Shown here in pieces: positions 37,038-61,534 of a stretch of 64,000 nt of DNA. Origin of the DNA: a virus; the IMG/VR virus record IMGVR_UViG_3300036766_000678, positions 64,001 to 128,000 of that record; one strand, written 5' to 3'. The position numbers and the translations under genes are program-made. Every line of letters starts with the position of its first letter. Position 1 is the stretch's first letter. The notes beneath the pieces were generated by a model. It searched no databases. It saw only the letters and a list, made by a program, of their open reading frames with translations, and had not been told where the DNA came from.

Positions 37038-37283
37038 TTATCTTGGAGCCATATTCTCATTCATTTGTGTATAGATAAAATCAAGCAACTTCTGATATCT
37101 GCCGAGTTTCAACATGGAAATAGGCGACATATTCCCAAGTAGTGGGTTTGTGCATATCATCCAGAATTTCGATTTCGATTCGTCATGGAAGAACATAGTG
37201 TCAATTGCTTTTAAAATAGTATTATAGTGGCACTCATAAAGAATTTTGTCAAATCTAGGACTTTGATTTTTGCTTCGTTTCAT
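37038..37283 (-). CDS. Xre/MbcA/ParS antitoxin C-terminal-like (DUF2384-like) protein
   Basis: W....NPLLGNMSPI.ML..G...LL..I pattern. Confidence 0.6.
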   Translation of the reverse strand: MKRSKNQSPRFDKILYECHYNTILKAIDTMFFHDESKSKFWMICTNPLLGNMSPISMLKLGRYQKLLDFIYTQMNENMAPR

Positions 37284-37509
37284 ATTTCCTCTCTAAGTAT
37301 TCTAAATTATCTAAAGGAAGCCATTTTCTACATCTACATCCTTCATTCCAATTCTTACAATGTGCCCAAGGCATTCTAGATTCTGTTATTTCTTCTAAAT
37401 CTTCAGGAGTAATATCTTTAATATCTATTTTACGCCAATGTTCATGGCCGCAGGTACGGCAACATCTTTCATCTAAACCAACAAAACTATATGGTACTTT
37501 TCTTAACAT
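37255..37509 (-). CDS. NLEYLE-family Cys/His microprotein
   Basis: CRTCGHEH ... CRCRKWLPLDNLEYLERKY. Confidence 0.7.
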   Translation of the reverse strand: MLRKVPYSFVGLDERCCRTCGHEHWRKIDIKDITPEDLEEITESRMPWAHCKNWNEGCRCRKWLPLDNLEYLERKYETKQKSKS

Positions 37510-37657
37510 ATAGATATTCGAGGTATTCTAGATTGTCACTGGGGACCCAATCGTTACAAGCATTTTCAATATAAGTGCTATGTAGATCATGGTAAAATCC
37601 ACATATACGACACCGTGGGTTATTAGTTCTAAATTTTAACTTCTTTTTTCTTTTCAT
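37487..37657 (-). CDS. NLEYLE-family microprotein (56 aa, absent from ORF track)
   Basis: MKRKKKLKF..CRICGFYHDLH..CNDWVPSDNLEYLEYLY. Confidence 0.65.
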   Translation of the reverse strand: MKRKKKLKFRTNNPRCRICGFYHDLHSTYIENACNDWVPSDNLEYLEYLYVKKSTI

Positions 37658-37859
37658 ACAGAAATTCTAAATACTCAAGATTGTCAGATGGAACATACTG
37701 CATACACCATGGTTTATAAACACCACCTAAAATCCTTGCAGCTACAGCAACTCGTTCACGTTCACATGGTAGCATTTGACTTAATCCATGACAATCATCA
37801 TGCCCACAAACTCTACAGGAACTATTGAACATTTTTCTGCTCATTGATATGGGCTTCAA
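37629..37859 (-). CDS. NLEYLE-family microprotein
   Basis: CRVCGHDDCH..CMQYVPSDNLEYLEFLY. Confidence 0.7.
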   Translation of the reverse strand: MKPISMSRKMFNSSCRVCGHDDCHGLSQMLPCERERVAVAARILGGVYKPWCMQYVPSDNLEYLEFLYEKKKEVKI

Positions 37860-38949
37860 TCTGATTTACACAGGCTTTAACGTCTTTTTTAATTTCATGC
37901 TCCCAAAAACGGAAGACTTTGTAACCACATTTTGTTAAATAAGCATTCTGAGATTTATCTATAGCCCGACGTTTGGCAATACCTGCAAATTCATTTACCT
38001 TATGCTCTAAACAACCATGCCAGTAACAGCCATCTGAAAAAATAATAATTTTATATTCTTCAATAACTGCGTCAACTAAAAATTTATTAAATAAAACTTT
38101 TTGGGTTTCAAAAGGAATATTTCGTTTTGTTAATTCTTCTTCAATAGCCACTTCAATTTTTGTATGATCAAATTTAGAAGCACCAATCCAAGCCCATTTA
38201 TCAATTTCACCAGAAGCAATAAGTCTTTTTCTAGTTTTAGATTGTTTCTTAGCTGCTTTTGCAATAATAGGACTATCTTCTTTTGTTAATCCAGAATTCC
38301 ATCCTGCTCCTGGACCAAATGCATTACCAAATTTTTCAATGTGTGTTTGTTGACTTTTCTCCTGTCTAGCTTGAATTTGCTCAGGAGTCATAAAATAATC
38401 AGGACGTTTTAATTTGCCTTCTGCAAATAGTTTCTTACGGGATTCTGATAGATTTTCAGCATTAATTTTTATACGAGGATCTGTCTCTTTTGTATGGCCT
38501 TCGTTCCAATTCAAATTACTACGATTATAAGAACCTTCTTGTTCAAAACCATTTCGTCTTAAATGCCCTTCTAAAATATGGCGAGAAATATTTAATTCAG
38601 CGGCAACATCTGTCATATTACTATTTTTAACTTTATCAATTAACTCTTGCACATTTAAAGATTCAATCCAACGAAATCTCTTTTGCAATCTACGAGCACT
38701 CCCATTTTCAACTCGTTTTGCATCAGCTTTTAATCGAATAGTTGCGTAATCTTGTTGAATATTGAAATGTTCTTTTAATCGCTTAATAATAACAGACCCG
38801 CATTTCCACTTTTTCAATAAAATAGAATAAGATTCAACAGTAAGTTCTTCTTTTAGAAGTTCTTTATTTGGGTACTCATCTAAAATTCGTTGAAATGTAG
38901 TATACATACCTATCATTATAAATATATCATAAAAAGCATTATTTTGCAA
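37822..38949 (-). CDS. DUF559/Vsr-like homing endonuclease with NUMOD3-like repeats
   Basis: E..I...L...F..Q...VD..I....DG.YWH..FRFWE; WN.G.TKE repeats; true start probably 38907. Confidence 0.75.
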   Translation of the reverse strand: MQNNAFYDIFIMIGMYTTFQRILDEYPNKELLKEELTVESYSILLKKWKCGSVIIKRLKEHFNIQQDYATIRLKADAKRVENGSARRLQKRFRWIESLNVQELIDKVKNSNMTDVAAELNISRHILEGHLRRNGFEQEGSYNRSNLNWNEGHTKETDPRIKINAENLSESRKKLFAEGKLKRPDYFMTPEQIQARQEKSQQTHIEKFGNAFGPGAGWNSGLTKEDSPIIAKAAKKQSKTRKRLIASGEIDKWAWIGASKFDHTKIEVAIEEELTKRNIPFETQKVLFNKFLVDAVIEEYKIIIFSDGCYWHGCLEHKVNEFAGIAKRRAIDKSQNAYLTKCGYKVFRFWEHEIKKDVKACVNQIEAHINEQKNVQ

Positions 38950-38971
38950 TGCCTTTAATCATTGTTATCTA

Positions 38972-40174
38972 CTACGGAGAATTCCATGAAAATGCTGAAT
39001 TATGGACAATCACACCGTCTGCATTATAGGAATGCTGCCCCTCAACACTCAAATCATAAACCTTTCCTGTGTAATCAAAGGTAGTAATATTTGTAATTTG
39101 CTGGGTAACTAAATTGATACCTACTAAACAAGAATCCCCAACTTTTAAGTCACTAGCAGGAACCCATCTTTGATCAAAAAGAAGAACCTCATGATTGCCT
39201 GTCATTTTCAAAATTCGTTTCCCAACTCTAATATCATACATAGGCTCTGAAATGTATTTTGAAATTTTGTCATAAACTTTATGAAATTTCCCATCGGAAG
39301 ATAAAACTTTCATACCAACTTTCACCTTTGTCAATGGCATATAGCCAAGAGAAGTGAGTATTCGAGTAGTATCCAAGAAACAACCAAGGCTGATTTTTAA
39401 AAATTGACCGATTTGTGACTGGAAGCGGCTGTGGCCCAAACCGGCTGCACCCACTTTAAACACAACAGTCTTTTTGTAATTCATTTTCATCTTATCGTAG
39501 AATTGCAACATATTCACGTATGATTGATTTATTTTTTCCACCTGATTTATATTCAAGGAAATTCCGTTATCATTGTACGCGAAGTCCTCCAAACCAGCCC
39601 TTTGTTGATAAAACAAATCTGCAAATAAAGAAATTCCAAAATATAAAAGATTAGCCAAATTAGGATCATTAGCCACACTATCAAATGTCAAATTTGTTAA
39701 AGGTGGCATGAAATTAATATCAGCCAAAATCAAATTTGAAAATGCCAAAATCTGGTAATCTTGTGTATTTCTACTAAAAATTTCTGGCATGAGTTTTCTA
39801 CTCTGAGAAATTACTTGCTGTTCAGAAGTAGAAAATTGACTTGGATTTGGACCATTGACTCCTGTTAACGTAGTCAAACTTGTAACAGTACCAAATGCCG
39901 TTGCATTTGTTCCAATACTATCGATAGCAGCAGCTAGGCGAACAGAATAATTCGTTCCTGGAGTTGTATTAATAACTTTTATCATTGTGGTATTAAGCCA
40001 CAATTGAACAGGTTGAATTATTCCAGTACTTTCAACGAACCCGCCAGTTCCACTAAAAATTACCTGAATAGCATAGAACGTGCCTGGGGGGTTGTTGTCT
40101 GGGGTCACTGTCACTAAAAATGAATTAGTTGTGACGTTGGATATAAACGGGGGCTGAGGCACACTGAGCGACAT
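38972..40174 (-). CDS. Putative head-tail connector/neck protein with mini-intein
   Basis: FN3-like N-terminus, helical connector-like middle, Hint domain near the C-terminus. Confidence 0.55.
   Translation of the reverse strand: MSLSVPQPPFISNVTTNSFLVTVTPDNNPPGTFYAIQVIFSGTGGFVESTGIIQPVQLWLNTTMIKVINTTPGTNYSVRLAAAIDSIGTNATAFGTVTSLTTLTGVNGPNPSQFSTSEQQVISQSRKLMPEIFSRNTQDYQILAFSNLILADINFMPPLTNLTFDSVANDPNLANLLYFGISLFADLFYQQRAGLEDFAYNDNGISLNINQVEKINQSYVNMLQFYDKMKMNYKKTVVFKVGAAGLGHSRFQSQIGQFLKISLGCFLDTTRILTSLGYMPLTKVKVGMKVLSSDGKFHKVYDKISKYISEPMYDIRVGKRILKMTGNHEVLLFDQRWVPASDLKVGDSCLVGINLVTQQITNITTFDYTGKVYDLSVEGQHSYNADGVIVHNSAFSWNSP
38999..39382 (-). mobile_element. Mini-intein (128 aa)
   Basis: G|CFLDTTRILT...VYDLSVEGQHSYNADGVIVHN|S; no endonuclease domain. 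Confidence 0.85.
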
Positions 40175-40185
40175 AATTTATCCTC

Positions 40186-41076
40186 TTAGATTGATATTGT
40201 AATTGCTTGATCAATACTTGCTACTAGAGTGGCACCACTTTTAACATTGGTTTCAAAATCAGACAAAGTTGTAACTGCATTTGTACCATTAGCTAAATTA
40301 GTCGCTCCAACAGCAGATTGTGCATTCCCACCATCTCCAGAAATTACAAAAGATACCAATTCAGAAGCAGCAGAAGAAAGTGTAAGTGCTTTAAGAATTT
40401 GAGCTGCGGAAGATACTCCACCTGTCATATTAACAGTAATTGCAAGCCCCGTAACAGAAACAGTTTCAAATCCAGCTCCACCTGTTCCACCAGATAATGA
40501 ATTACCAGAAACAGTAAGATTTATTGTATCCGAGGTATTTAAAGAAATGAAATTGCCAAGTGTACCTGCTGTATTAGCTGTAATTGTAATTACATTACTA
40601 ACAGCAGAAGCTGTAGAAAATGTTGCAGCAGTTGCGGATGAAATAGCTAACGCTAGAGATGTAGCTGTTGTAGAATTATCTACTGAAGTGGTCCAATCTA
40701 CCCCCTCTGTTAAACGAACTTCGTTAACTGTTAAGACTGCTCCAGTTAATTTTGTATAATCAACCACAGTAGCTGTTCCTGTTGCAGTAGCAATAGTATT
40801 TACATAAGCAACGGTAATAGAATTTTCGGATGTTCCATATCTATTTGCCGTATATGTAATATCTTGAATGGCTTTAGAAGCTTTTACCCCAGATAAAAGA
40901 ACATTATCAGAAGCTGGTTTAAATCGCTGAACGCCAGTTCGATAAACAATTTTACCTGTAGTATCAATTACAAACGGAAGGTACTGGTAATCATACATTA
41001 TATAATAAGTAGTCGTAGATAGATCGGCACGTACTTCTAGCCATGAACTGTAGTCTGACTCTATGTTGGGATACAT
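40186..41076 (-). CDS. Structural protein sharing a domain with the sheath
   Basis: ATGTATVVDY...TATSLA.AI...GN.I.L.TSD..NL..SG..L.GG also present in the sheath. Confidence 0.55.
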   Translation of the reverse strand: MYPNIESDYSSWLEVRADLSTTTYYIMYDYQYLPFVIDTTGKIVYRTGVQRFKPASDNVLLSGVKASKAIQDITYTANRYGTSENSITVAYVNTIATATGTATVVDYTKLTGAVLTVNEVRLTEGVDWTTSVDNSTTATSLALAISSATAATFSTASAVSNVITITANTAGTLGNFISLNTSDTINLTVSGNSLSGGTGGAGFETVSVTGLAITVNMTGGVSSAAQILKALTLSSAASELVSFVISGDGGNAQSAVGATNLANGTNAVTTLSDFETNVKSGATLVASIDQAITISI

Positions 41077-41095
41077 TTATGTTCTCCTAAATAAA

Positions 41096-41278
41096 TTATT
41101 TATCTTCATCGTCATCATTTTCTTTTTCAACCCACAAATTCGTAGCCTTCGATTTCCTAACAGAAATTAATCCATACTCAGTATCGCAGCCTAAGCAGAC
41201 ACGCACCAAAAAGGCTCGTTTGCCTTTTTTGACTACCTTTTCTTTGTATCTTTTGCGTGAACAAGTAGGACATGCCAT
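41096..41278 (-). CDS. Small zinc-ribbon protein
   Basis: CPTC...CLGC, 60 aa. Confidence 0.55.
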   Translation of the reverse strand: MACPTCSRKRYKEKVVKKGKRAFLVRVCLGCDTEYGLISVRKSKATNLWVEKENDDDEDK

Positions 41279-41286
41279 ATAACCTC

Positions 41287-41793
41287 TTAAGCAATTCGAT
41301 CTAATGTAATAGTATCTTCATAGAAATCATTTGGAACAACTAATTTCTTATGCCAATTATTAACTGGAATTTCTAACCCCGCATCTTGAAAGGCATGAGA
41401 TATAAAAGTGCTACATATCTCAGAATGTTTAGAATCTAAAAATCCCGTCAAAAAAAGAGGAATGTCATACCATTCGTCAAGATGATTGTGCAACCACATA
41501 ATTACTTGTTCTATTTGTTCATCTGTAATTTTTCTTACCCTATATAATTCAATACCATATTCTTTATTTAATTTATTTAAATCTATTTTAGAAACTCTAG
41601 TTTTTGGCCATCTTGCTTCTAACATTAAATCAGTATCTTGATCAACCAGAGCAACATGGCAATACCCAAATCCTTTTGGTACACCACCAAATAATCTTTG
41701 CGCCCAACCAATAAATTTTGAAGACCAAGAAGAACTAAGAATCACACGGAATAACAATATATCCCCTGGCTTTATTAAATCTTTACTAAACAT
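41287..41793 (-). CDS. Permuted papain-like (YaeF/YiiX, NlpC/P60) amidase
   Basis: PGDILLF, HVAL, YD, CSTFISHAF..AG. Confidence 0.8.
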   Translation of the reverse strand: MFSKDLIKPGDILLFRVILSSSWSSKFIGWAQRLFGGVPKGFGYCHVALVDQDTDLMLEARWPKTRVSKIDLNKLNKEYGIELYRVRKITDEQIEQVIMWLHNHLDEWYDIPLFLTGFLDSKHSEICSTFISHAFQDAGLEIPVNNWHKKLVVPNDFYEDTITLDRIA

Positions 41794-42464
41794 TATTTAT
41801 ACCCAAGAAGATTAACTAACAAGGTAGCATTACTTGACCCCGCATTAACATAAGTAGTTCGAATATAAACATCTAATCCATTATAAGTAGGAGAAACTGT
41901 TTTAACTGTGGGAACTTCAAACATCTTAGTTCCTTCCCCCATAATACGATATTTATTAGAAAATTGAGCTAAAGGAACAAATGTGGATTCATCAGAAATA
42001 TCACCCGTATACAAACCAACCTCAAATAGTATACTGTCACCAATATTTGAACCAGACCAATGAACATCCACGCCATTTAATTTAAAAGGAGCTGGAAAAT
42101 GTGTTTTTACATATCCTGTTTGACCTGCTGGGATAGATAAAACTCCATTTTCTCCATCTACCCAATAACTAGCAATATCTGTAAATAAAGCATTTGCTAC
42201 TTTGGGGAGGCCATCTGTACTTCTATATTCTAAAGGTTGATTACAAGAAGCTTTGTAATTTGTCTCAAAATCTACAGCATCATCACTATTTTTTAATAAA
42301 GAGATATTCCATAAAAATGTTTGTGCTTCTGGAGCAAATATCTCATAAGTATCTACCTTTTCCATATATTGCATTAAAAGTGCTTTTGTACTTACTAATA
42401 TTTTAAAATCCACCCATGAATTAATCAACATTGTCTGCATATTAATTCTCTGTCCAACCGACAC
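41793..42464 (-). CDS. Hypothetical virion protein
   Basis: 223 aa, coupled, in a structural cluster. Confidence 0.5.
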   Translation of the reverse strand: MSVGQRINMQTMLINSWVDFKILVSTKALLMQYMEKVDTYEIFAPEAQTFLWNISLLKNSDDAVDFETNYKASCNQPLEYRSTDGLPKVANALFTDIASYWVDGENGVLSIPAGQTGYVKTHFPAPFKLNGVDVHWSGSNIGDSILFEVGLYTGDISDESTFVPLAQFSNKYRIMGEGTKMFEVPTVKTVSPTYNGLDVYIRTTYVNAGSSNATLLVNLLGYK

Positions 42465-44367
42465 TCAGAATTACTGCCCTATTGTTTGAAAAGGGATTAC
42501 CTGCAATGAGCATAGTTTGACCTGGAGATACAGCTATTTGTTCAATAATAACCATGTTTGAAGAATTAGAATTTTGTCCTACTTGGTCTATTACAACCAA
42601 AGTACCACTGGACGAAACTGTGGAACTTTTAAAAATATTCGCAACTGAAATATTACTACTTCCAAAATTAGCATTAGCGGGAGTAAAAGGTGTTCCATCA
42701 GTTGTAATTGTTGGATTTTTAAACATAAGAAAAGTTACTTGTACATTAGTTACCTTGCAATTTCCAGTTACAGAAAAAACGTTCATAGTCTTTCCACTAC
42801 CTATTGGATTTTTAAATAAGAATATGGGATTATTAGAACCAGCAGTAGCTAAATTATAATTATCAATTGCAGCATAAAAAACTTTTCCAGAAGCTAAATC
42901 GGTTGATCCTGTAACAGAAACACTTAAAGTTGGTTGATCAATTGCTAATGTAACAGGAATAGAACTAGCCATTACCTTCTGTCCTAATGTAGTAGATGTA
43001 CCACCATACTTATCTATATTAATTCCTACATCAGATTGATCAGAAGCTATAACAACTGGCATCGAAGATGCCATTGTTTTCTGACCAAGTGTTACATCAG
43101 TTCCACCAAATCCACCAATATCAGAACGCAATCTTCCAGCAAGGGTTAATGTTAAAGGACTTGTTTGCCCATTTATATATGTTGGTGGACTTGTTGTTGC
43201 AGCAGCTTGAATAAGGATTCCCTTTTCACCAGATGTTGTTGATCCTTGAGAAACTTCTAAAGCTGCTACTGTAGTATCCAAAGCTAAAGCTGAAGTATTT
43301 AAATTAGTTCCTGCATTTGCTGTTACTGTACCAGATATAACCCAGGGACTTGTGCTCTGTGTAACAGCTACAGTCCCAGTAATAGTTGTAGAAGAAAGAG
43401 AAACAACCCAAGGTGAAGTTGATTGAGTTATAGCTATAGTTGCAGGAAAATTATTAACATCAACTTGTAAATCTCCAGTTGCATCAACTGTAGCTATATT
43501 TACACCCGCCGAATCTACAATTTCTATTGGCCATTTGTTAGACGCTGTATTAGGTGTACCCTGATTAGCTGTAACAATTCCACTTACTGGTTGCGTTACC
43601 TGACTACCATCTACAATTAATCTTCCTGCTGTAGTAAGAGTTAAATCAGAAAATTGAGTTGCTGTTAAAGAAGGGGAACTTGAAACAACTCTTGCTGCAA
43701 CAGCAGTACCTTTTGTTGTTCCTGGAGTATAAGTATCTCCAGAAGAATCTAAAGTATGTTGCTCCCCAGAAGAAACTCCACCAGTAATATTTACATTAAG
43801 TGATCCACTTGTGGATGTTAAACTATTACCAGATGTATCTTCTATTTTAGCAATTACAATTCCAGATACTGGTTGTGTTACTTGTGACCCATCAACAACA
43901 AGACGATTAGATGTTGAATCTATTCTTTCCCAAGTTACTCCATTAAATCCATATAAAAGAGCAGAATTTAAACCTACTGTTTGTCCAGCCGTAATTGACC
44001 CATTATCAAGAACTGTAGGAGTGGAAGATCCTGCTACATTTATACTCCCATCTGGGTTAACAATTAATTGATTTCCGCCATCAAATATAGCAGAACGAAG
44101 AGCATATCCATCAGGACCAAAATTAACTATTGCTAATGGATGGGAAGAACTATCTACAGGATCAACACCCTCTATAGTAACAGTTCCAACAGAAATAGTT
44201 CCCGAAATAGAAAGAGCACCCTGTGCATCTGCTCTGACGGGAATAAAACGATTATCGGGGGTAACAGAATATAATACAGAAATTGGTATTGAGCTGTTAA
44301 GCTGATCAGCGTCAAGCGGGGTATTATATTCGGGAGGTATTACATTTCCCATCTTAGTTTCCCCCAA
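42442..44367 (-). CDS. Fibre-like virion protein with internal repeats
   Basis: RL.VDGSQVTQPVSG x2, TQSTSPWV x2, LGQK.MASS.PV x2. Confidence 0.6.
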   Translation of the reverse strand: MGETKMGNVIPPEYNTPLDADQLNSSIPISVLYSVTPDNRFIPVRADAQGALSISGTISVGTVTIEGVDPVDSSSHPLAIVNFGPDGYALRSAIFDGGNQLIVNPDGSINVAGSSTPTVLDNGSITAGQTVGLNSALLYGFNGVTWERIDSTSNRLVVDGSQVTQPVSGIVIAKIEDTSGNSLTSTSGSLNVNITGGVSSGEQHTLDSSGDTYTPGTTKGTAVAARVVSSSPSLTATQFSDLTLTTAGRLIVDGSQVTQPVSGIVTANQGTPNTASNKWPIEIVDSAGVNIATVDATGDLQVDVNNFPATIAITQSTSPWVVSLSSTTITGTVAVTQSTSPWVISGTVTANAGTNLNTSALALDTTVAALEVSQGSTTSGEKGILIQAAATTSPPTYINGQTSPLTLTLAGRLRSDIGGFGGTDVTLGQKTMASSMPVVIASDQSDVGINIDKYGGTSTTLGQKVMASSIPVTLAIDQPTLSVSVTGSTDLASGKVFYAAIDNYNLATAGSNNPIFLFKNPIGSGKTMNVFSVTGNCKVTNVQVTFLMFKNPTITTDGTPFTPANANFGSSNISVANIFKSSTVSSSGTLVVIDQVGQNSNSSNMVIIEQIAVSPGQTMLIAGNPFSNNRAVILSVGWTEN

Positions 44368-45097: not shown

Positions 45098-45098
45098 A

Positions 45099-46465: not shown

Positions 46466-46493
46466 AAAATTAACTCCTTAGAAGTGGCACTCC

Positions 46494-47535: not shown

Positions 47536-47610
47536 TGGTTGCACCCCTACGAATCGCACGTAGCCCTCTAGCTTATGAGACTAGAATGATCACTTGATCA
47601 CTTGGGAGCG
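47536..47610 (-). tRNA. tRNA with CAU anticodon (Met/Ile2/initiator-like), atypical
   Basis: Cloverleaf with loop CUCAUAA and encoded CCA; C1:A72 mismatch, U4:U69, T-loop UGCGAUU. Confidence 0.7.
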
Positions 47611-47787: not shown

Positions 47788-47862
47788 TGGCTGCGAGGAC
47801 AAGATTCGAACTTGTAACCTTCTGTTTAACAGACAGACACTCTACCATTGAGTTACCTCGCA
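47788..47862 (-). tRNA. trnN: tRNA-Asn(GUU)
   Basis: Canonical cloverleaf UGCGAGG/CCUCGCA, UUCGAAU T-loop, G73, CCA. Confidence 0.95.
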
Positions 47863-47872: not shown

Positions 47873-48244
47873 CTATCGTCTACCTGTACGTTTTCTCCAT
47901 GCAGCATTTTTAGCTACCACATCATCGGTGCAAATTCTACAACGACACCCACGATTATAACCACTCGCATTATGTTTTCCATACCCCATATCTTTAAATG
48001 TTTTTAATTTATGGCAAGGATTACATAATACCTGACACTTAGCCAATTCAATTTCTCTTCTTTCTTTAGACCAAGACCAAACTTTATGACTAATTTTTAA
48101 TTTGGGATCTATATGATCTATATTTAAATCGTCCCAAGAACCACATTTAGTACACGGACCATTAGCCAAAAGCCACTCAATACGTCTTTTAGCTATCCAA
48201 ACTCGATTAAATTCTCTTTGTTGATTAGGATCTTTATAAGGCAT
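47873..48244 (-). CDS. HNH endonuclease in the tRNA cluster
   Basis: C..CG...IDHIDP...N.....CQVLC..CH..KT; start reassigned to MPYKDP because the longer ORF overlaps tRNAs. Confidence 0.85.
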   Translation of the reverse strand: MPYKDPNQQREFNRVWIAKRRIEWLLANGPCTKCGSWDDLNIDHIDPKLKISHKVWSWSKERREIELAKCQVLCNPCHKLKTFKDMGYGKHNASGYNRGCRCRICTDDVVAKNAAWRKRTGRR

Positions 48245-48274
48245 ATATTTATTATAACATATTAAATATAAAAT

Positions 48275-48324
48275 TACAACCCTTCGGTTAACAGCCGAGA
48301 GCACTGCCATTGTGCTACTCTTGA
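48275..48324 (-). pseudogene. Truncated tRNA-Asn(GUU)
   Basis: Acceptor 5' strand, D arm and anticodon arm (CUGUUAA) intact; breaks off in the T-stem into AT-rich sequence. Confidence 0.75.
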
Positions 48325-48345
48325 ACGAAATAAACTTAATTTGTT

Positions 48346-48421
48346 TGGTGGACCAGACAGGTTCTGCCCCTGCTGCCTCGACATTGCAGGTGTCGCGCTC
48401 TCCTAATTGAGCTACTAGCCC
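48346..48421 (-). tRNA. trnA: tRNA-Ala(UGC), atypical loops
   Basis: GGGCUAG/CUGGUCC with G3:U70, CCA; C33; T-loop GGCAGAA. Confidence 0.8.
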
Positions 48422-48422
48422 A

Positions 48423-48635
48423 CTAAACAAACTTAGTTATTTTATAAAGATATTCTAGGTATTCTAAATTACCCATATTTCTTGGGCATTTACAAATTAT
48501 CCAATCCACAGTTTCTAATTTATAACAAATTCTTTCCCCATTTTTACACAAATAATGATCATAATGACCACAACCAGTACATTTAACATGGCGAATTAAA
48601 GAATTATCAATTTTCAAATCAGATGGAAAATCCAT
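48423..48635 (-). CDS. NLEYLE-family microprotein
   Basis: CTGCGHYDH..CKCPRNMGNLEYLEYLY. Confidence 0.7.
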   Translation of the reverse strand: MDFPSDLKIDNSLIRHVKCTGCGHYDHYLCKNGERICYKLETVDWIICKCPRNMGNLEYLEYLYKITKFV

Positions 48636-48641: not shown

Positions 48642-48670
48642 ATTGTATCAGATCTTTATCTATTTGTCAA
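48642..48670 (-). promoter_or_regulatory. Sigma70 promoter, leaderless; may also drive the tRNAs
   Basis: TTGACA-17-TACAAT-6 nt-ATG. Confidence 0.75.
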
Positions 48671-52218: not shown

Positions 52219-52286
52219 ATAAATCTCCTTTAAATTACAAGTCAGCCTCACGGCCAATCTTGTTTACAACTAAACTCTAATTAAAA

Positions 52287-53527: not shown

Positions 53528-53529
53528 GT

Positions 53530-56500
53530 TTATTTTTTAGGTACATCATTAATTGTCTTATGTTTTAATGTGCCCATACTTCTAAAAATATTTCCAACTT
53601 CGTCATGATCACTAGGATCATAAGTCAAATAAGGGACACGAGTGGCTTTCTTCTCATTAACTGTAGAAGAGGGCATTGGAAGTTCTTCAATAGCTTTTTC
53701 CATGGCCTTTAACGCCATATCATCGAAGGCAAGTAATTCTTTATGCTTGGCCTTAATTGCATGAGTCATAGCTTTATGACGAGCATCTAATAGATAAGTA
53801 CCAGATTTAAGTTCACTATCTAGTACATCTGGGCTCAATTGAAGAACATTTTTGTCAACCATATTAGCAACAATTTTCTGGCATCGTTCAGAACGTGCAG
53901 AAAGAATAGCAGCAAATTTCTTTGCTTTCTCTTCCTCTTGAGCCTTAACTTCAATAGCTTTTAGTTCGGCCTCTTTCTTAGAAATAGCTTCCTCACGAGT
54001 TTTAAGAGCAGATTCTTTCATACCCATTTCATCTTCATGAGCTTCTTCAAGTGCGGGATGCTCTTCAACTTTAGGAGCCTCTTCCATCTTAGGAGCTTCT
54101 GGCATAGCGGGAGCCATCTCAGGCTTTTTTTCCTCAACTGGAGGAAGACCAAGAACAGCTTTCATAAGCTTAAGCACTTCACCAACTTCTTTACCAAAAC
54201 CATCTGGCAATCTTTTAACTTCCTTGCCATCTTTCTCAATAATAACTTCTTTAGATTCTTTGTCCTTATGAGCAGAGTATCCTTCACCAATATCAAGTTT
54301 ATCTGCTTTATCAAATGCAGAAACTTCTTCTTTAGGAGTATCACCAGGGAGAGCTAAATTCTCAGTTTCGTGCTCAGGAACTCCAGCAGGTTTCTCTTCA
54401 ACCTTAACATCATCAACTAAAGGATCTGCGTGTTCAGGTGTAGGAGGCATTTCAGTTGCAGCAGATTTATTAACAGCCACATCTGGCTCTTTTGTAAGAT
54501 TAGGAGTAGTATGTTCTGTTTTACCTTTAACAGCTTCATCAGGCTTGCTAGAGGGATTAGAAGAAGGTTCCTTTTTATCCTTTACTGCTTGATCTGGTTC
54601 CTTAGTTAAATTAGGTGTCTTATTTACTTTATCCCCATCAACACTTGTTTCAGGAGTAGCAGATTTGCCTTCTTCTGGTAAAGTTGTACCCTTAACAGAT
54701 TCATCTGGTTTTGCATCAAATTTTTTCGTACCTTCTGGTAAAGTAGATCCATCAACTGCTTCTGTTGGTTTATCAGCTGCTTTCTTTTCCATAATAGTCT
54801 CCTGAGATGATTTCTTTGGAACATCCATACCCTTTTCTCTAGCTTCAGAATAGGCTGCTGCTACCGCTTGGGCTCGTTCCATTCCATCTTCTTTAATATG
54901 TTTTTCTACATGCTTCTTAATAAATTCTTGTGCTTCGGGTGTCATTGAAGACCACTTAATTTGTGCATTAGCTTCTTTATAATTAACAGAGGCTTTCTTT
55001 TCATCAACTAATTTGCAAGGTTTACCATTCATACTATGTCGTCCATATTCCAGCATCTCACCACATTCGGGACATTTTGTTGCTGCTTCTTTTTTAGAAC
55101 CCTTCTCTTCAGCTTCCATTTCCTCAGTTCCCTTAGCTACATAAGAAGTTTCAACCTCTTTCTCTGATTTCTCCAGTTTCTTCTCTTCTGGATTCTTAGG
55201 AGTAGTGGTAACTTCTTTACCTTCAGCTTCAGGCTTAGGTTCTGAATAATCTGTTTTTACTTCTTTTGCTTTAGGGGCGGCAGGTCCTGTTTGACCCTTT
55301 TCCTGCCCTGGCATTTTAAATTGTGGATCAGTCTTAGCATCTGTACCTGCTGGTGCTGCTGGACCTTTTTGAGCTTGTTCCTGTCCTGGTTTTGTTACTG
55401 GGGAATTTTTAACATTGTGTTCTTTATTATTTGTGCCAGTAGAAGGTTTTGCATAACTACCATCAGGTCCTAGTTCTGGACCTTTTGCGGTTTTATTTAA
55501 TTTATGTGTTACATCCCATAAATCAGCCAATTTCTCAATTCCTTCTTTAGTATAACGAGCAACAACCTCTTTACCATATGCTTCACTGGTTGCCCATTTC
55601 TGATCATCAAAAGAAAGTGTTTCAAATGTACTACCCCAAATATCTTTAAGAGAAGCATCTAATAGGCACTTAGCATCTTCATACACTGACCAAGTAGAAG
55701 CAAGTACATTATTTTTATCTTCATTAAATTTGGCTGAGATGGAAGATTTCTTATCTTTTTTCTTCCCATAATCACATGTTACACACGTAACTTCATCCCC
55801 CACTTTACGGGCAGCAACACTATCACAGTTTGGACATTTGACAAATTCTGTTTTAGCTGTTTCTTTTCCCAATTCCTCTTTAGCCACTGCTTCAACTTTC
55901 TTTTCCAATAATTGAGCAGCAAAGCTATCTTTTACTTTAGCCACAATTCTAGATAGAAATGTTTCTTCTTTCTTAGTGGCATCAGCAACCACTTCTTTAT
56001 TAACTACTTCGTTAGCTTTCTTGGTTTTATGCTGAATATAGCTCTCAAGTTGCTCCATTTCTAGGGCGGAAATTTTTGATAAAATCTTTTTTTGATCTTC
56101 GGATACAATATTCTTATCTGACATGGATGACTCCTTGGATGATTCTTGTGCTTCTTTATCAGTAGTTGGGCAAATTCCGCAGAACTCAGCCTTCAAATTT
56201 TTTGCTGTCTCTGAATCTACTTTAGTTAAAAGACCTTCAAATTGTTTTACAAAATCTTGTTGCTCATCTTTAGAAAGAGCGGCGGTTTTCGAAAGTCTGC
56301 TTCTCATATTGCTTAAAATTGTTTTCACAATCGCTTTAGGGTCTGCGGGAATTCCAACCAAAGACAATTCATTGAATGCAATCCCACTATTTAAAGACAT
56401 GGCTTTAACTTTTTGACCTTTAGAAATGTTATACTTAAGATTATCAACTTCAGCATCAAACTCATGTCCCAAAGAAAATGCTTCAAGATGTTTACAACGT

Positions 56501-58236
56501 GGATCAGCATCTGAATGAAGAACCAAACCACACACGCTACACGCACTTTCATCAACGGAACAATTGTGAACAGCAACACCATTAACAAGATAAGAATTTT
56601 TCTCTTTAACACTAAAATTATAGACAAGTAATTTTTGATCTTCTACTTCAATACCACTAATTGGGATCATTAAATAATTATTTACTAAAAGTTTCTGTTG
56701 TTTATTACCACCTACAGGCAAACCAGTAGGAATCTTATCACAATATTTTGCCATTTCATGTAATGATTCCCCTGAAATACAAATTCTATATGTTCTAGAG
56801 GCAGCAATTGTTTTAGTGCCACTTTTAAAATTAGCTATTTTTTCTTTATAATGCTTTTCTTCTAATGCAAAAAGAAGAGAAGCACGACAAAATAACCATG
56901 CCATCTGATAAATAAAAGCTTGGGAAGCAGTTTCCAAATAGGCACGTCTAATATGGGGATGAGCATCTTTTCTATTTATCTCTTCATAATCGCTATAGCA
57001 GCCATCCCCGCAAAGAAATGCTCCTAGAAGTTCTTTTTGGAATTCAATATTCCATAAAAGAACAGAGGGATCAAGCTTTTTAGTTTTAGCTTTTTCTCCA
57101 CCTAATTGCATTAATTTTTCTGCCAGTTCTTTATCATATATAAAAATACGGCAAGCATTTAATTTTGGATATTTCTTTATAGTTACTTTCTTTTTAGTAA
57201 TAGAGCTAATAAGGGTTTTAATCTCTTTAGCATATTTGGCTTCTTTTATATGCAAAGTAAACATTGCTCCACCAACTAAATTGCAACGACAAATCTTATT
57301 TACTTTTCTACATGGGTAACATTTATAATAAATAATATTGCCCTCTGCAAGATACCAACCTAAAAGACGTGCAAACTCTTTAGTTATATTATCGGGGGTT
57401 TTTTCTTCTTTAGAAAAGGGAAAAGATACATAATCCCCTGGACGAAGATTCTCAGCAGATATCCACTCAAAATATTTAGCATTACTGGCTATTTTTTCTA
57501 GGGATTGCCCAGTAATACTATGCCCTGCCTCAACTAAAGAGACAGAATTTAAAATATTAATTATGTTCTCTTTTTTTATGCTCCAAAAAGGATGTTCATT
57601 TGTGGCAGTAATAGGAAGTTTTGTAAATCCTAAAAGTTTTAAAGTATACATTAACCCGTCATAAGGTCTAATCATTGTTTCAATTACTTCATCAGAAAGA
57701 CCTAAATGATTTAAAACTTTATCCCCTACTTTGATATCTTCGATATTTTTAAAGGTATGATCGGATAGTAAAATTTGGGTCCCTTCTTTAAAACAACCCA
57801 TACTCACCGTGTTCAAAATACCAGTTTGAACTTGCCTCGCTAGTTCAGGAAATAAATATTTATCGAGCTTCGCTAATACTTCAATATATTTCTCACCAGT
57901 CTCTGGATCTTCAACAGGATATGAGTCGATGAGTCTGCCCACGGCTTTCAAAACCGAATCAGCCGAATGGTCTATGTACAATCCCTTTCCTTGAAAAGAA
58001 GCATAACTTTTTAAAAGATCATCCCAACCAAACGCATCCCAATTGCCGTTAGCTCCATTTGTTTCATAACTTGAAATTGCACGAGCCCTCAGATACAAAA
58101 ACTGTTCGTTTTTAGGTTCAATGATATGTGAAGATCCTGGAACCTTTTCTTCCATAGGACGATCAATCAATAATTCTTCCACTGCTGCGGCAGTTTTTAA
58201 AATCTTCCATGAAGAACCAATTTTTTGTAATGACAT
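53530..58236 (-). CDS. Prohead protease-scaffold polyprotein with intein
   Basis: N-terminal protease (YIDH..., VSMG) and a long acidic E/K/P-rich coiled-coil C-terminus. Confidence 0.75.
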   Translation of the reverse strand: MSLQKIGSSWKILKTAAAVEELLIDRPMEEKVPGSSHIIEPKNEQFLYLRARAISSYETNGANGNWDAFGWDDLLKSYASFQGKGLYIDHSADSVLKAVGRLIDSYPVEDPETGEKYIEVLAKLDKYLFPELARQVQTGILNTVSMGCFKEGTQILLSDHTFKNIEDIKVGDKVLNHLGLSDEVIETMIRPYDGLMYTLKLLGFTKLPITATNEHPFWSIKKENIINILNSVSLVEAGHSITGQSLEKIASNAKYFEWISAENLRPGDYVSFPFSKEEKTPDNITKEFARLLGWYLAEGNIIYYKCYPCRKVNKICRCNLVGGAMFTLHIKEAKYAKEIKTLISSITKKKVTIKKYPKLNACRIFIYDKELAEKLMQLGGEKAKTKKLDPSVLLWNIEFQKELLGAFLCGDGCYSDYEEINRKDAHPHIRRAYLETASQAFIYQMAWLFCRASLLFALEEKHYKEKIANFKSGTKTIAASRTYRICISGESLHEMAKYCDKIPTGLPVGGNKQQKLLVNNYLMIPISGIEVEDQKLLVYNFSVKEKNSYLVNGVAVHNCSVDESACSVCGLVLHSDADPRCKHLEAFSLGHEFDAEVDNLKYNISKGQKVKAMSLNSGIAFNELSLVGIPADPKAIVKTILSNMRSRLSKTAALSKDEQQDFVKQFEGLLTKVDSETAKNLKAEFCGICPTTDKEAQESSKESSMSDKNIVSEDQKKILSKISALEMEQLESYIQHKTKKANEVVNKEVVADATKKEETFLSRIVAKVKDSFAAQLLEKKVEAVAKEELGKETAKTEFVKCPNCDSVAARKVGDEVTCVTCDYGKKKDKKSSISAKFNEDKNNVLASTWSVYEDAKCLLDASLKDIWGSTFETLSFDDQKWATSEAYGKEVVARYTKEGIEKLADLWDVTHKLNKTAKGPELGPDGSYAKPSTGTNNKEHNVKNSPVTKPGQEQAQKGPAAPAGTDAKTDPQFKMPGQEKGQTGPAAPKAKEVKTDYSEPKPEAEGKEVTTTPKNPEEKKLEKSEKEVETSYVAKGTEEMEAEEKGSKKEAATKCPECGEMLEYGRHSMNGKPCKLVDEKKASVNYKEANAQIKWSSMTPEAQEFIKKHVEKHIKEDGMERAQAVAAAYSEAREKGMDVPKKSSQETIMEKKAADKPTEAVDGSTLPEGTKKFDAKPDESVKGTTLPEEGKSATPETSVDGDKVNKTPNLTKEPDQAVKDKKEPSSNPSSKPDEAVKGKTEHTTPNLTKEPDVAVNKSAATEMPPTPEHADPLVDDVKVEEKPAGVPEHETENLALPGDTPKEEVSAFDKADKLDIGEGYSAHKDKESKEVIIEKDGKEVKRLPDGFGKEVGEVLKLMKAVLGLPPVEEKKPEMAPAMPEAPKMEEAPKVEEHPALEEAHEDEMGMKESALKTREEAISKKEAELKAIEVKAQEEEKAKKFAAILSARSERCQKIVANMVDKNVLQLSPDVLDSELKSGTYLLDARHKAMTHAIKAKHKELLAFDDMALKAMEKAIEELPMPSSTVNEKKATRVPYLTYDPSDHDEVGNIFRSMGTLKHKTINDVPKK
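56563..57795 (-). mobile_element. Intein (411 aa) with LAGLIDADG endonuclease
   Basis: SMG|CFKEGTQI...LLGWYLAEG...LLGAFLCGDG...VYNFSV...AVHN|C. Confidence 0.92.
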
Positions 58237-58238
58237 AA

Positions 58239-58889
58239 TTATTCCTCAACAATTCCCTTAAGCAAATTTCGAGCCTTATTCAAACTTGTTTCAACATTAA
58301 AATTCTTGATTTCATCCCATTCTTCATCTGTCAATTCTTTCTTAGGAGGTATTGCTTCCTCAGTAACATCGTGTAAAGAAGGCTGCTCTGGGATTTGTTC
58401 CCATTCTTTTTTAGGAACATATTGATATTTTTTCTTTGGTTCTAAAGGAACATTAACTTGTTTTGGTTTTTGAACAGGTGCTTGCCTAACTCGTTTAGGA
58501 GCAACAGGAGTCTTTGTTTTTGGTGCATATTGTGGTGTTGAAATACTTGTGTCGGTGTTTCCATATGAATCAACACGAACATCAGACAAGTTTGGGCCAG
58601 AGACAATCAATGTACAATTAATATCGCCTGGATGCGATTTTTCGAATAAGGGGGCCGAAAAATTTAAACCCCCTACAAAATCTTCTATATTCCACTTTTG
58701 ACGATTTAGATCGACGCAACGTGAGTGCCTAGACGCGCCTGAGTCCCATTCTACAATCTGATACCCCTGGGAAGCTAAATCTTCCAATACTGGTAAGGAC
58801 ATATCCTGACGAGTATTTCCTACAGCCTGTTTATTTAGCCTGTTTATTTTTTGAGCTTTTTCGGCTAGTTTTTCTTCCCAATTGGTCAT
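58239..58889 (-). CDS. Putative minor head protein (Mu gpF/SPP1 gp7-like C-terminal motif)
   Basis: W...RC..LN...W...HP..NC.L; between portal and protease. Confidence 0.4.
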   Translation of the reverse strand: MTNWEEKLAEKAQKINRLNKQAVGNTRQDMSLPVLEDLASQGYQIVEWDSGASRHSRCVDLNRQKWNIEDFVGGLNFSAPLFEKSHPGDINCTLIVSGPNLSDVRVDSYGNTDTSISTPQYAPKTKTPVAPKRVRQAPVQKPKQVNVPLEPKKKYQYVPKKEWEQIPEQPSLHDVTEEAIPPKKELTDEEWDEIKNFNVETSLNKARNLLKGIVEE

Positions 58890-59118
58890 ATTTTAGTTCC
58901 AAATATTCGAGATTATCACTTGTTAAAAAATTAGGGCATTTACAATCAAAATTTGGTCTTGGATTACTTAGAATTTTTATCCACAAGCAGGGCTTCTTCC
59001 CTTTTCGTGAACAGGTAGCGTGATCAAAACGTGAATGCTTGCATGTTCGGCACCTATCTCTATTTGTTTCTTCTACTATTTGCATGTACCCTGAAAAATT
59101 ATATGTTTTGCTTATCAT
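58831..59118 (-). CDS. NLEYLE-family microprotein
   Basis: CRTCKH..H..CKCPNFLTSDNLEYLE. Confidence 0.65.
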   Translation of the reverse strand: MISKTYNFSGYMQIVEETNRDRCRTCKHSRFDHATCSRKGKKPCLWIKILSNPRPNFDCKCPNFLTSDNLEYLELKYDQLGRKTSRKSSKNKQAK

Positions 59119-59311
59119 AAAGGTACTCTAAATACTTCAAGTTCTCTTTAGGTAAAAATTCTGCACATTTACAAGCTAGAGTAAAATTCTTAAAAGCCAT
59201 ATAAATACATTTACCTGGTTTTTTATCCACATCAGTATGACTTAAAAAATAATGTTCACAATTCCTGCACAATTCGAAATTAAAAATATTCTTAATTCGT
59301 CTAATTGGCAT
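59099..59311 (-). CDS. NLEYLE-family microprotein
   Basis: CRNCEH..H..CKCAEFLPKENLKYLEYLY. Confidence 0.7.
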   Translation of the reverse strand: MPIRRIKNIFNFELCRNCEHYFLSHTDVDKKPGKCIYMAFKNFTLACKCAEFLPKENLKYLEYLYDKQNI

Positions 59312-59577
59312 TATCTTCCAGGCTCATTGTACCCATGTTCAGCCAAAATCTTAGAAGCCATTTTAATTAAATTATAATTTTTATCTTTAACACTACGTTC
59401 AAATTGTTTAAATGCTTGTTCATTTTGAACAGCCATACGAGCACAATCTATAGAAAATCCCATAAGCTGTGTAAGCAAAGAACCCATTAATATCGGGATA
59501 TTAAGCTCTTCTTGCCCATCAGATCCTACGATTAAATATTCATCTTCTTTTTTTGGTTTCTCTTGCATAATACCCAC
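59311..59577 (-). CDS. Hypothetical protein
   Basis: 88 aa with SD. Confidence 0.55.
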   Translation of the reverse strand: MGIMQEKPKKEDEYLIVGSDGQEELNIPILMGSLLTQLMGFSIDCARMAVQNEQAFKQFERSVKDKNYNLIKMASKILAEHGYNEPGR

Positions 59578-59630
59578 CTTATCTTATCCTTTTAATTAAG
59601 TTAAATGACTAAAAAATCGTATATAAACAA

Positions 59631-59689
59631 TATTCCCTATATACACCACTTTTAGTTATATTTTTACATCAAAAACAATATTACCTACT
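59631..59689 (-). promoter_or_regulatory. Conserved ~59-bp intergenic motif, copy B
   Basis: 55/59 identical to 23792..23850. Confidence 0.6.
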
Positions 59690-59692
59690 ACG

Positions 59693-59929
59693 TTACTTTG
59701 TAACTGAAAAACCTACTGCTTCCAACCTTCCAATTAATACAGACAAATCATCTGGCCCGTAATCCACGACCCCAATTTGCTTGATAGCAGTATGAAGATC
59801 GTCAATTGTCAGTTGTTTTTTGGGCCATTGTTTCAATAAAATCTCTGAAATATAATTAGGGTCTATAGTGAAACCACCATATTTAATTACTTTCAATTTA
59901 TAGGAACTTCCAATCTTATTTAATGCCAT
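59693..59929 (-). CDS. Hypothetical protein with protease-like N-terminus
   Basis: MALNKIGSSYK versus MSLQKIGSSWK of the prohead protease. Confidence 0.55.
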   Translation of the reverse strand: MALNKIGSSYKLKVIKYGGFTIDPNYISEILLKQWPKKQLTIDDLHTAIKQIGVVDYGPDDLSVLIGRLEAVGFSVTK

Positions 59930-59930
59930 A

Positions 59931-60596
59931 TTATTTACCTAGAAAATGTCGGACATCTTGAATAGAAACCGCTAAAGTTATTCCTGACCAACTAAAAGAA
60001 CTGCCTTCAGTCATTGCATTAACTCCCACTAATTCTCCTCTATAATTAAAAACACCTCCACCAGAAGAACCTGAATTAATGGCAGCATCTGTTACTATGT
60101 ATAAACTTTTATATAATTCTATTTCAACATTTAAAGCAGATACAATACCATGAGAAACTAAAAATTCCATATTAAATGGGCTTCCAACATTTATAATCTC
60201 TTCTCCAACTTTTAAATGTTTACCTAATTTGACATATTTATGACGTAATCCTTTTACACGAAGAAGACTTAAATCGTGGAGGGCATCTAACTTAATTACT
60301 TCTGCTGTATATGATTTTCCATTTATATCCCTAATCCAAATTTGTGAGGGAACAGTGGGTTGAAAACAATGCCCAGCAGACAGTATTTCATCCTTAGAAA
60401 TAAATGTGCCAGAACATCCGCCACGTAAAATTTGTTCTTTACCTTCTTTATTTTTAATTTTAGCTTTTATATGAATAAGTACAGAAGCTTTAAGTGCTCG
60501 ATTAGTGGCTCTTTCGTAATTCATTTTTGCATTGGCACAACTAGAAGAACTTAAAACTATCGTGCTAGTTAGCAACATAGCTAGTAATTTTCTCAT
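59931..60596 (-). CDS. Trypsin-like (HtrA-type) serine protease with signal peptide
   Basis: SAGHC, DLSLL, TDAAINSGSSGG triad motifs; hydrophobic N-terminus. Confidence 0.88.
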   Translation of the reverse strand: MRKLLAMLLTSTIVLSSSSCANAKMNYERATNRALKASVLIHIKAKIKNKEGKEQILRGGCSGTFISKDEILSAGHCFQPTVPSQIWIRDINGKSYTAEVIKLDALHDLSLLRVKGLRHKYVKLGKHLKVGEEIINVGSPFNMEFLVSHGIVSALNVEIELYKSLYIVTDAAINSGSSGGGVFNYRGELVGVNAMTEGSSFSWSGITLAVSIQDVRHFLGK

Positions 60597-60604
60597 AAAA
60601 TTCC

Positions 60605-60826
60605 TTATAAATTTTTATTATACAAATATTCGAAATACTCAAGATTGGACATTGGAGTATAGAAATCACAAGGGCATTTCCCCGTTTGTGACCAGATACA
60701 CCAAGATATAGCAGGTTTATCTTCTATAAGAATTCCTTGTTGGTAAGTTTCAATACTACCTAAATCTTTATGGTCTTCATAAGAATGATAACAATTACAA
60801 AGAAGATGTACTTTCTTTTCTTTCAT
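60605..60826 (-). CDS. NLEYLE-family microprotein
   Basis: CNCYHSYEDH..CPCDFYTPMSNLEYFEYLY. Confidence 0.7.
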   Translation of the reverse strand: MKEKKVHLLCNCYHSYEDHKDLGSIETYQQGILIEDKPAISWCIWSQTGKCPCDFYTPMSNLEYFEYLYNKNL

Positions 60827-61040
60827 AACACCATTCCAAATACTCTAAATTATCTGATGGGATATATCTCAAACAAATACATCTATTAGTTCGACAAATT
60901 CTCCCCAAATATTCACTATCTCTATGTTGATAATTTAGACAAGAAGTATTTTTAGAAGTATGCCAACTAGGAGAACATTTGCACGTCTTGCAAACACTAT
61001 TAAAACGCTGATGGATCTTTACTTCTTTCTTTTTTATCAT
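60795..61040 (-). CDS. NLEYLE-family microprotein
   Basis: CKTCKC..WH..CICLRYIPSDNLEYLE. Confidence 0.7.
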   Translation of the reverse strand: MIKKKEVKIHQRFNSVCKTCKCSPSWHTSKNTSCLNYQHRDSEYLGRICRTNRCICLRYIPSDNLEYLEWCYERKESTSSL

Positions 61041-61344
61041 ATAAATGTTCTAAATATTCTAGGTTATCTTTTGGTGTATATTCTTTGCATTGGCAATTTA
61101 CAAACGTAACTGCCCCCCAATCGGAAAATTCAACACACTGATCATTAAGGTGGGCATGATTACAATCTCTACATCTTTTGGTAGTAGGTATAATTGTGCT
61201 AGGGCTAGTTGTAGTAGTCGTATAAGTATAAGGATAAGGATTTGTATTGGGAGAATACGAAGGATCTATTCCAGTAGTTGTATTATAATTCCAAATAGGA
61301 TTATTTGTTGCTAACACATTAGCCGTTGTAACACTATTAAACAT
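61000..61344 (-). CDS. NLEYLE-family protein with T/P/Y-rich N-terminus
   Basis: CRDCNHAH..CQCKEYTPKDNLEYLEHLY. Confidence 0.7.
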   Translation of the reverse strand: MFNSVTTANVLATNNPIWNYNTTTGIDPSYSPNTNPYPYTYTTTTTSPSTIIPTTKRCRDCNHAHLNDQCVEFSDWGAVTFVNCQCKEYTPKDNLEYLEHLYDKKERSKDPSAF

Positions 61345-61534
61345 TTATCTCTCCTTTTCGTTTCTTATCATATAAGTATTCTAGGTATTCTAAGTTATTT
61401 CTAGGTTCATAACCTAAACACTCAGAAGCACCATTTAAAAGTTTTGGGCAATAACAATGTATTGGAACATACTCACTCTCAGAATTTCCATAATAATGTA
61501 AACAATTACAATTTCTACATGTACTTAAAAACAT
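61337..61534 (-). CDS. NLEYLE-family microprotein
   Basis: CRNCNCLH..CLGYEPRNNLEYLEYLY. Confidence 0.7.
   Translation of the reverse strand: MFLSTCRNCNCLHYYGNSESEYVPIHCYCPKLLNGASECLGYEPRNNLEYLEYLYDKKRKGEINV

Follow-up and report, generated by a model that had tools for sequence, protein, structure and literature searches.

Why would a phage carry dozens of copies of a very small Cys/His protein that share one scaffold and differ in their loops? The question is raised by a window of 64,000 nucleotides (bases 64001-128000 of the 180,416-bp virus record IMGVR_UViG_3300036766_000678, estimated to be 94% complete), in which an initial annotation had recognised ten such genes. All ten open reading frames (ORFs) are present where they had been placed, on the minus strand, including a 56-residue ORF at 37487-37657 that was missing from the ORF track; it exists, and falls under a 60-residue cut-off. 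They belong to a virus-only family of stand-alone miniproteins of ~55-115 residues, which is conserved as protein, gains and loses copies quickly, ends in a tail that is a separable module, and often embeds the start codon of the next gene in that tail. We tentatively suggest, at somewhat less than an even chance, that the family is a diversified array of binding proteins directed against factors of the host or the phage, in which the tail serves all members as a contact surface.

The members have a common build. An N-terminal C-x(1,2)-C-x-H-x4-H knuckle is followed by a middle Cys, a C-x-C pair, an aromatic residue, usually a Pro, and a tail of the form [D/N/S/G]-N-L-[E/K]-Y-[L/F]-E-x-x-Y, after which comes a short and mostly basic extension. 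As the initial annotation had described, the ten window members share a knuckle, a C-x-C pair and a constant tail around a variable middle; when aligned they also share the middle Cys, and a tail of the form NL[EK]Y[LF]E stands at the end of all ten. A degenerate DNA pattern for N-L-[E/K]-Y-L-E occurs 10 times in the window, each time inside a member ORF, against an expectation of 0.04 +/- 0.20 from 100 dinucleotide-preserving shuffles of the window; its occurrence is therefore not due to chance. Across 143 aligned sequences, the potential ligands are conserved to 100% (C15 and C18), 96% (H20), 87% (H25), 99% (C35), 78% (C47) and 96% (C49), an aromatic residue occupies position 52 in 98%, and a residue of the helix N-cap type stands at position 56. 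The tail positions that follow are equally distinctive: N57 (100%), L58 (99%), Y or F at 60, L61 (96%), E62 (97%) and Y65 (95%). The seven candidate metal ligands would make up one or two zinc sites. The two loops between the ligands, together with the N-terminus, are free in length and sequence, the scaffold being constant. Members are not uniformly nucleic-acid-like, with isoelectric points from 4.6 to 10.2 and mixed charge.

The family is far from confined to the ten members from which it was first described. In the 180,416-bp genome of this uncultured phage, a hidden Markov model (HMM) built from them detects about 45 small ORFs with this architecture, roughly 15% of the phage's genes, all on one coding strand and dispersed over replication, structural and accessory regions. 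Several larger proteins without the Cys/His unit also end in the tail. Among related virus records, located via the terminase gene, a complete 192-kb relative with terminal repeats has 46 family matches and a 62%-complete 120-kb record has 47; further records have 17, 27 and 5, and smaller fragments 2-4. A profile search of 1.84 billion representative proteins returned 1,100 clusters at E <=0.001, nearly all of them 50-120 residues long. Any name that a source gives to these clusters reads 'hypothetical protein', and all of them lack a Pfam domain. On metagenome contigs, arrays reach 11 copies in 14 kb, and among the more distant copies only D-N-L-x-Y-L-E is constant. With one member as a tblastn query, no family member was found in 50,697 records of isolated phages. 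In cellular genomes the tail pattern occurs at at least 120 loci, with a true member at none of the matches listed. Motif-string and keyword searches of the literature gave nothing relevant to the family, which is undescribed in the libraries and papers searched.

These short ORFs are real protein-coding genes. Between the window and a syntenic fragment of a relative (L008), five orthologous members have ratios of non-synonymous to synonymous substitution (dN/dS) of 0.19-0.72, and the adjacent portal and protease genes, in the same comparison, 0.21-0.23. The purifying selection on orthologues shows that members are translated. Partitioned by region over eleven orthologue pairs, dN/dS is 0.12 for the C-x-C pair plus tail (amino acid identity 69%), 0.26 for the knuckle (71%) and 0.58 for the variable loop (35%). 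The earlier claim that motif codons vary synonymously under selection on the protein also holds. In 40 tails, codon choice for Asn, Leu, Tyr and Glu matches that of the long genes of the genome, and pairwise DNA identity among 42 tails is 0.667, against 0.658 +/- 0.006 simulated from the peptides and codon usage. Selection therefore acts on the peptide. A signal carried by the tail DNA itself, or a recombination site resembling att, was considered and rejected, since synonymous sites follow codon usage and DNA identity is as the peptides predict; the 42 tails show none of the homogenisation that a recombination site or RNA signal would give.

The tail is a module in its own right. A 136-residue, Cys-free protein encoded outside the window lacks the Cys/His unit, yet ends in F-E-F-L-D-N-L-x-Y-L-E. 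The tail is its most conserved segment among eight orthologues, two of them only 36-41% identical overall, and the protein is modelled confidently as a beta-barrel in which the tail forms a terminal helix. No specific fold could be assigned to the barrel, which gave generic beta-barrel matches only (Z <=6.3), among them weak tube/Hcp-like ones. Because the tail is kept on this barrel, and because Zn domains without a tail also exist, we regard it as separable and separately selected. Natural two-unit fusions occur, with a tail on every Zn unit, and the motif therefore need not be C-terminal. The larger tail-bearing proteins have no Pfam or PHROG assignment. The tail does covary with the type of knuckle: CRxC knuckles pair with NLE and CxC knuckles with NLK/R (acidic in 64/80 versus 10/63; odds ratio 21, p 6e-15). 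This may reflect a charge contact, or simply two old subfamilies; in independent contrasts the tree was too weak to separate contact from subfamily descent. Of the constant docking helix that had been proposed, the separable and separately selected tail stands, while the covariation with knuckle type means that it may be partly structural.

Two further genes outside the window have tail-like ends. A 234-residue protein with a run of N-N-L-x-N pentapeptide repeats (NLENNLWNNLRNNLENNL...; L006:16836-17540, minus strand, genome 164836-165540) ends in K-L-E-Y-L-E-K-C-Y, as does its orthologue in the relative L254. The gene directly upstream of ClpP (L006:6612-6893, minus strand, genome 154612-154893) is tail-bearing in three relatives and varies in its body, being a Cys-free protein of 93 residues here and a Zn-type member of 58-68 residues in L035 and L254. 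Its end, LEWKY-x-x-LE-x-KNET-x-R, overlaps the ClpP start both here and in L254. The ClpP itself is phage-encoded (PF00574, E 1.6e-24).

The tail also links many of the genes to their neighbours. Tandem translational coupling had been proposed for most members, and in 7/10 window members the next ORF indeed starts at an ATG inside the last Tyr codon of the tail. Genome-wide, this codon plus the following G reads TATG in 32/42 tails and opens an ORF of at least 40 residues in 22/42; in ten tails it is unused, and ten have no ATG there. Since the last Tyr codon and the next G form the following ATG, members are translationally coupled to the downstream gene. In total, 39/46 tail genes (85%) overlap the next gene, versus 113/264 other genes, and long overlaps are enriched among tail genes (odds ratio 4.2, p 2.5e-5). 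The embedded starts have no Shine-Dalgarno site, though the genome otherwise uses them (61% versus a 16.5% background). Many members begin with a basic stretch (MKRKK, MIKKK), which is the Y-[D/E]-K-K of the tail before it, read in the +1 frame.

The chaining can be followed through the window, whose member genes all lie on the minus strand. The tail of the 76-residue member at 37629-37859 (TATGA) holds the ATG of the 56-residue member at 37487-37657, the shortest of all, whose tail (TATGT) holds that of the 84-residue member at 37255-37509 (CRTCGH knuckle, CRC, LDNLEYLERKY tail; HMM E 1.8e-27). The TATGA of the latter is in turn the start of an 81-residue ORFan (37038-37283, minus strand), with a 26-nt overlap. 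Further along, the tail of the 95-residue member at 58831-59118 (71% identical to its L008 orthologue, dN/dS 0.19) contains the ATG of a 216-residue head-region ORFan (58239-58889, minus strand). The stretch 58831-58889 is read twice, as the member's C-terminal extension and as the opening 20 codons of the head-region gene, and 59/59 of its nucleotides are identical to L008, with flanks ~70% identical. This identity indicates two constrained frames, and the embedded ATG of 58239-58889 is therefore a true start, validated by dual-coding conservation.

Copies are gained and lost quickly, and relatives keep similar numbers of largely different sets. Directly after the portal gene there are four copies in the window, three in L008 and one in the more distant L048. 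The four are a 73-residue member (60605-60826), the sole C-x-C knuckle type among the window members; an 81-residue member (60795-61040); a 114-residue member with a Thr/Asn/Pro/Tyr-rich N-terminal extension (61000-61344); and a 65-residue member that starts 1 nt inside the portal gene end (61337-61534) and forms the fastest-evolving orthologue pair (46% identity, dN/dS 0.72). The extra member at 60795-61040 is missing in L008, and both ends of the indel are tail/start junctions. Two 'core' copies hold their place among relatives: the 114-residue member, which follows the portal gene in L008 and L048, and a 70-residue member (59099-59311) with syntenic orthologues in both. A comparison with L254, which belongs to a 174.7-kb relative, sets the family against its genomic background: 27/29 backbone genes there are syntenic, at a median 66% identity, whereas for members the best match falls within the syntenic region in only 1/11 cases (median identity 40%). 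As for the 114-residue member, its type sits just past the portal gene wherever the context is known, and residues 1-55 form a low-complexity extension that keeps its composition, and not its sequence, in orthologues from many metagenomes (P0030, P0046, P0051, P0060, P0088 and P0120).

Comparison with structures and libraries gave the family no name, in agreement with the initial annotation. An AlphaFold2 model of 59099-59311, made with the family alignment, is of moderate confidence (predicted local distance difference test, pLDDT, 77; predicted template modelling score, pTM, 0.57). It has small hairpins at the knuckles, a one-turn helix past H20 and a C-terminal helix over residues 57-67, and is most confident in the knuckle and tail. 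For so small and moderately confident a model there was no significant match to a solved fold, with zinc ribbons, treble clefs and RING/PHD domains as the zinc-binding folds of interest: the best Foldseek hit in the PDB had E 1.1 (eL37, RING), and VIA-align wide gave no Z >=2. The best BFVD match (E 0.18) was to uncharacterised actinophage miniproteins, and the best match in a PDB sequence profile search had E 0.23. Similarity to ferredoxin-thioredoxin reductase or eL37 was rejected at E 0.2-0.5. In Pfam, PHROG, NCBIfam and PADLOC no family matched more than one of 40 members, the best matches (E 0.0036-0.05) all scoring below curated cut-offs; no characterised family was matched in these libraries, the PDB or the fold searches. 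Neighbours in the ESM Atlas are unnamed clusters with scores below 0.9, useful as leads only. Among proteins of 201-2000 residues that contain a family unit, none has a fused known domain, which is weak evidence.

How might such an array work? In the reading that we favour, one small metal-binding unit and an N-capped amphipathic helix, D-N-L-x-Y-L-E-x-x-Y, would be held constant as a scaffold, and the loops would let each copy recognise a different host (or phage) macromolecule, most plausibly for host takeover or counter-defence. The invariant helix face (N, L, Y, L, E, Y) would contact one shared partner, an idea that we base on the conservation of this helix on a protein unrelated to the family. 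Whole units between tail/start junctions could be gained or lost with reading frames intact. The anti-defence or takeover role put forward initially fits the rapid turnover and fast-evolving loops, but fit is no proof, and members are not enriched behind early-type promoters (2/13 genome-wide, equal to background). Several points weigh against our interpretation. Metal binding is deduced from residue conservation, and knuckle-tail covariation could mean that the helix is simply part of the fold. Overall dN/dS is below 1, which does not show positive selection. The absence of early-promoter enrichment and the presence of members in replication, structural and accessory modules mean that a single host-takeover timing is not indicated. 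Finally, the fused-domain search in 201-2000-residue proteins offers no functional link, and the analysis pointed to no partner, target or activity.

The most serious competitor, which we regard as possible though doubtful, is that the tail helix is merely the hydrophobic core of a mini zinc domain, the members being independent small inhibitors or regulators with no common partner. It would account for the charge swap between knuckle type and tail position 59 (odds ratio 21, p 6e-15), for helix and knuckle being the most confident parts of a monomer model, for the tail on each Zn unit of two-unit fusions, and for the D/N/S/G/T before the invariant Asn, the set of residues preferred at helix N-caps. 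It does not account so easily for the same helix being the most conserved part of a Cys-free beta-barrel and the end of other non-Zn proteins, or for the existence of tail-less Zn units. It is also unusual for a purely packing helix to have invariant polar residues (N57 100%, E62 97%), and the covariation could be subfamily descent. It is also conceivable that the NLxYLE helix is a universal docking tag that brings the ~45 interchangeable zinc modules, each serving recognition, and a few larger proteins into one phage or host hub, such as a protease complex centred on the phage ClpP or the inside of the capsid; we think this unlikely. A capsid location appears again in the proposal that the tail is a packaging signal, docking the miniproteins, with a few larger proteins, on scaffold, portal or capsid interior for injection against host defences, much as T4 internal proteins carry a capsid-targeting sequence. 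Around the genes for the portal, the trypsin-like protease and the 1568-residue head protein lie six of the ten window copies, two of them at positions that are conserved in relatives, and the tail-bearing 136-residue protein has its weak tube/Hcp-like matches. Most copies, however, lie in replication and accessory regions, nothing points to late-only expression, and the matches of the barrel are of a generic kind (Z <=6.3), and we consider virion cargo distinctly unlikely.

Two explanations remain. Members might be cis-acting translational devices, delivering ribosomes to the next gene or activating it in the manner of phage Mu Com, with the tail carrying the start site. Overlap with the following gene in 85% of tail genes, and an embedded ATG in half of them, speak for this, as do the embedded starts that lack a Shine-Dalgarno site in a genome that otherwise uses them, and a weak Zn_ribbon_Com match in one member (E 0.1). 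Yet the tail is conserved as peptide and not as RNA, ten of 42 tails have no ATG at this position and ten more leave theirs unused, and strong purifying selection also holds the Cys/His ligands and those tail residues that lie well away from the ATG. The member ahead of a given gene also differs among relatives and the Com match is not significant, so that we hold the idea to be improbable. More improbable still, to the point of being remote, is descent of the units from HNH (His-Me finger) homing endonucleases, or their being selfish cassettes that recombine at a conserved DNA joint. At the level of motifs, CxxCG...H...NLxYL...K resembles the genome's HNH active site (...DH...WNLQYLT...N..K), as read against the general HNH layout; four window members adjoin homing-endonuclease genes, and unit-length indels end at tail junctions. 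Against this, hhalign of the family with the genome's HNH domains gives 2.9% probability over 10 columns, no member has a Pfam HNH match, tails share no DNA similarity beyond that imposed by their peptides, and syntenic core copies are kept under purifying selection.

Our preferred reading, an array of diversified binders, has its closest functional analogues in the ankyrin-repeat/PRANC (F-box-like) host-range proteins of poxviruses and in cellular F-box arrays, which likewise join a variable target-binding part to a short, constant C-terminal module of helix type. In such arrays the constant module attaches to a defined hub, Skp1-cullin, and the targets bound by the variable domains are degraded. 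The poxvirus proteins also form a viral multigene family with many paralogues per genome and rapid gain and loss. The likeness is one of function only, with no relation in sequence or fold: the present proteins are Cys/His miniproteins of 55-115 residues rather than repeat proteins, and the host is bacterial. Nor was a cullin- or Skp1-like hub found here, and any docking on one is putative. Should the docking-tag reading nevertheless be true, the family would be a combinatorial receptor array like F-box/PRANC, used to degrade, sequester or inject against defence proteins, and renewed by gain and loss of unit-length cassettes at tail/start junctions.

Other systems resemble the family in single features. 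Com of phage Mu (PF10122), a translational activator that overlaps mom and another near functional analogue, is likewise a small Cys-rich zinc protein encoded just upstream of, and overlapping, the next gene. It is, however, single-copy, a C4 ribbon and without an NLxYLE helix, while the family's ligands are C2H2-C-C2; membership was rejected, with 1/40 members matching at 12.5 bits against a 22.9-bit cut-off (E 0.1). With HNH/His-Me fingers the family shares a CxxC knuckle, a His, an invariant Asn-Leu at the helix start and then a basic residue, and NLQYL occurs as a local motif in the genome's own HNH genes. Neither the second CxxC nor the catalytic DH/HH pair, however, falls in the canonical register, and the hhalign and Pfam results given above led us to reject membership here too. 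ExoX-like_C (PF20600) has a similarly short C-terminal helix motif of the D-x-x-Y-L-x-W type, and residues 58-73 of member 60795-61040 align to positions 12-27 of its 30-position model. This was one of ~45 tails genome-wide, scored 14 bits against a 26.5-bit cut-off and lacked the first half of the model, and was rejected. Clamp-binding C-terminal peptides are short, portable, hydrophobic/acidic and common to unrelated proteins that dock on one hub. Those of T4 gp43, gp55 and gp33 and the bacterial QL[SD]LF type presumably resemble the family tail in an x-L-[DE]-[FY]-L pattern, which we take as a lead only. The family tail differs in being internal in two-unit fusions, and a phage sliding clamp as hub was rejected, the 94%-complete genome having no match to gp45 (PF02916), beta-clamp (PF00712) or PCNA (PF00705).

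A solitary 70-residue member (48423-48635, minus strand), flanked by GIY-YIG and HNH homing-endonuclease genes, is the first gene downstream of a sigma-70-like promoter match (48642-48670, minus strand; TTGACA-17-TACAAT with an upstream TG). The initial annotation had called this promoter perfect; it does lie directly before the member and is the best match in 13 kb, but it is near-consensus, at 11/12. Its -10 hexamer ends 6 nt ahead of the ATG at 48635, and the transcript would therefore be leaderless. On the coding strand, 5/13 of the strongest sigma-70-like matches end 5-6 nt or less before the next ATG, an indication that this phage makes leaderless transcripts quite often. Behind the same promoter lies a tRNA cluster, comprising tRNA-Met (47536-47610), tRNA-Asn (47788-47862) and a third tRNA (48349-48421, minus strand; Rfam RF00005, 43.7 bits), which ARAGORN missed and which begins one base past the stop of the member. 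The 185-residue ORF at 47873-48430 is over-extended across this tRNA, and the HNH gene must therefore start further in. Elsewhere, ARAGORN called an unusually long, 92-nt tRNA-Ile with anticodon TAT (L004:949-1040, minus strand, genome ~60949-61040).

Between the third and fourth family clusters of the window lies a trypsin-like serine protease gene (59931-60596, minus strand; PF13365, E 1e-23), whose position is conserved in relatives. Its product has an N-terminal signal with a lipobox-like L-S-S-S-S-C, and this lipoprotein signal argues for a bacterial host. The portal (61534-63939, minus strand) and the 1568-residue head protein (53530-58236, minus strand) are far longer than their L048 orthologues (586 and 1149 residues), the extra length being consistent with intein insertions. 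A 400-residue protein (38972-40174, minus strand) has a C-terminal Hint/intein splicing domain (PF14890, E 3.5e-12), and the region is filled with many HNH, Endo VII, GIY-YIG and Vsr-like endonuclease genes.

Expansion of a paralogous family to ~15% of genes, with 40 or more copies per genome, is rare in bacteriophages. The present family spans more than 1,000 metagenome clusters and yet is without a name, domain assignment or structural relative. The start codon inside the conserved, peptide-coding tail represents a testable case of dual coding that ties expression to array architecture. A constant scaffold, hypervariable loops and fast turnover are what would be expected of host-interaction or counter-defence repertoires, and these three features make the family a candidate pool for new inhibitors of bacterial proteins. 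It may thus represent a minimal, naturally diversified zinc scaffold.

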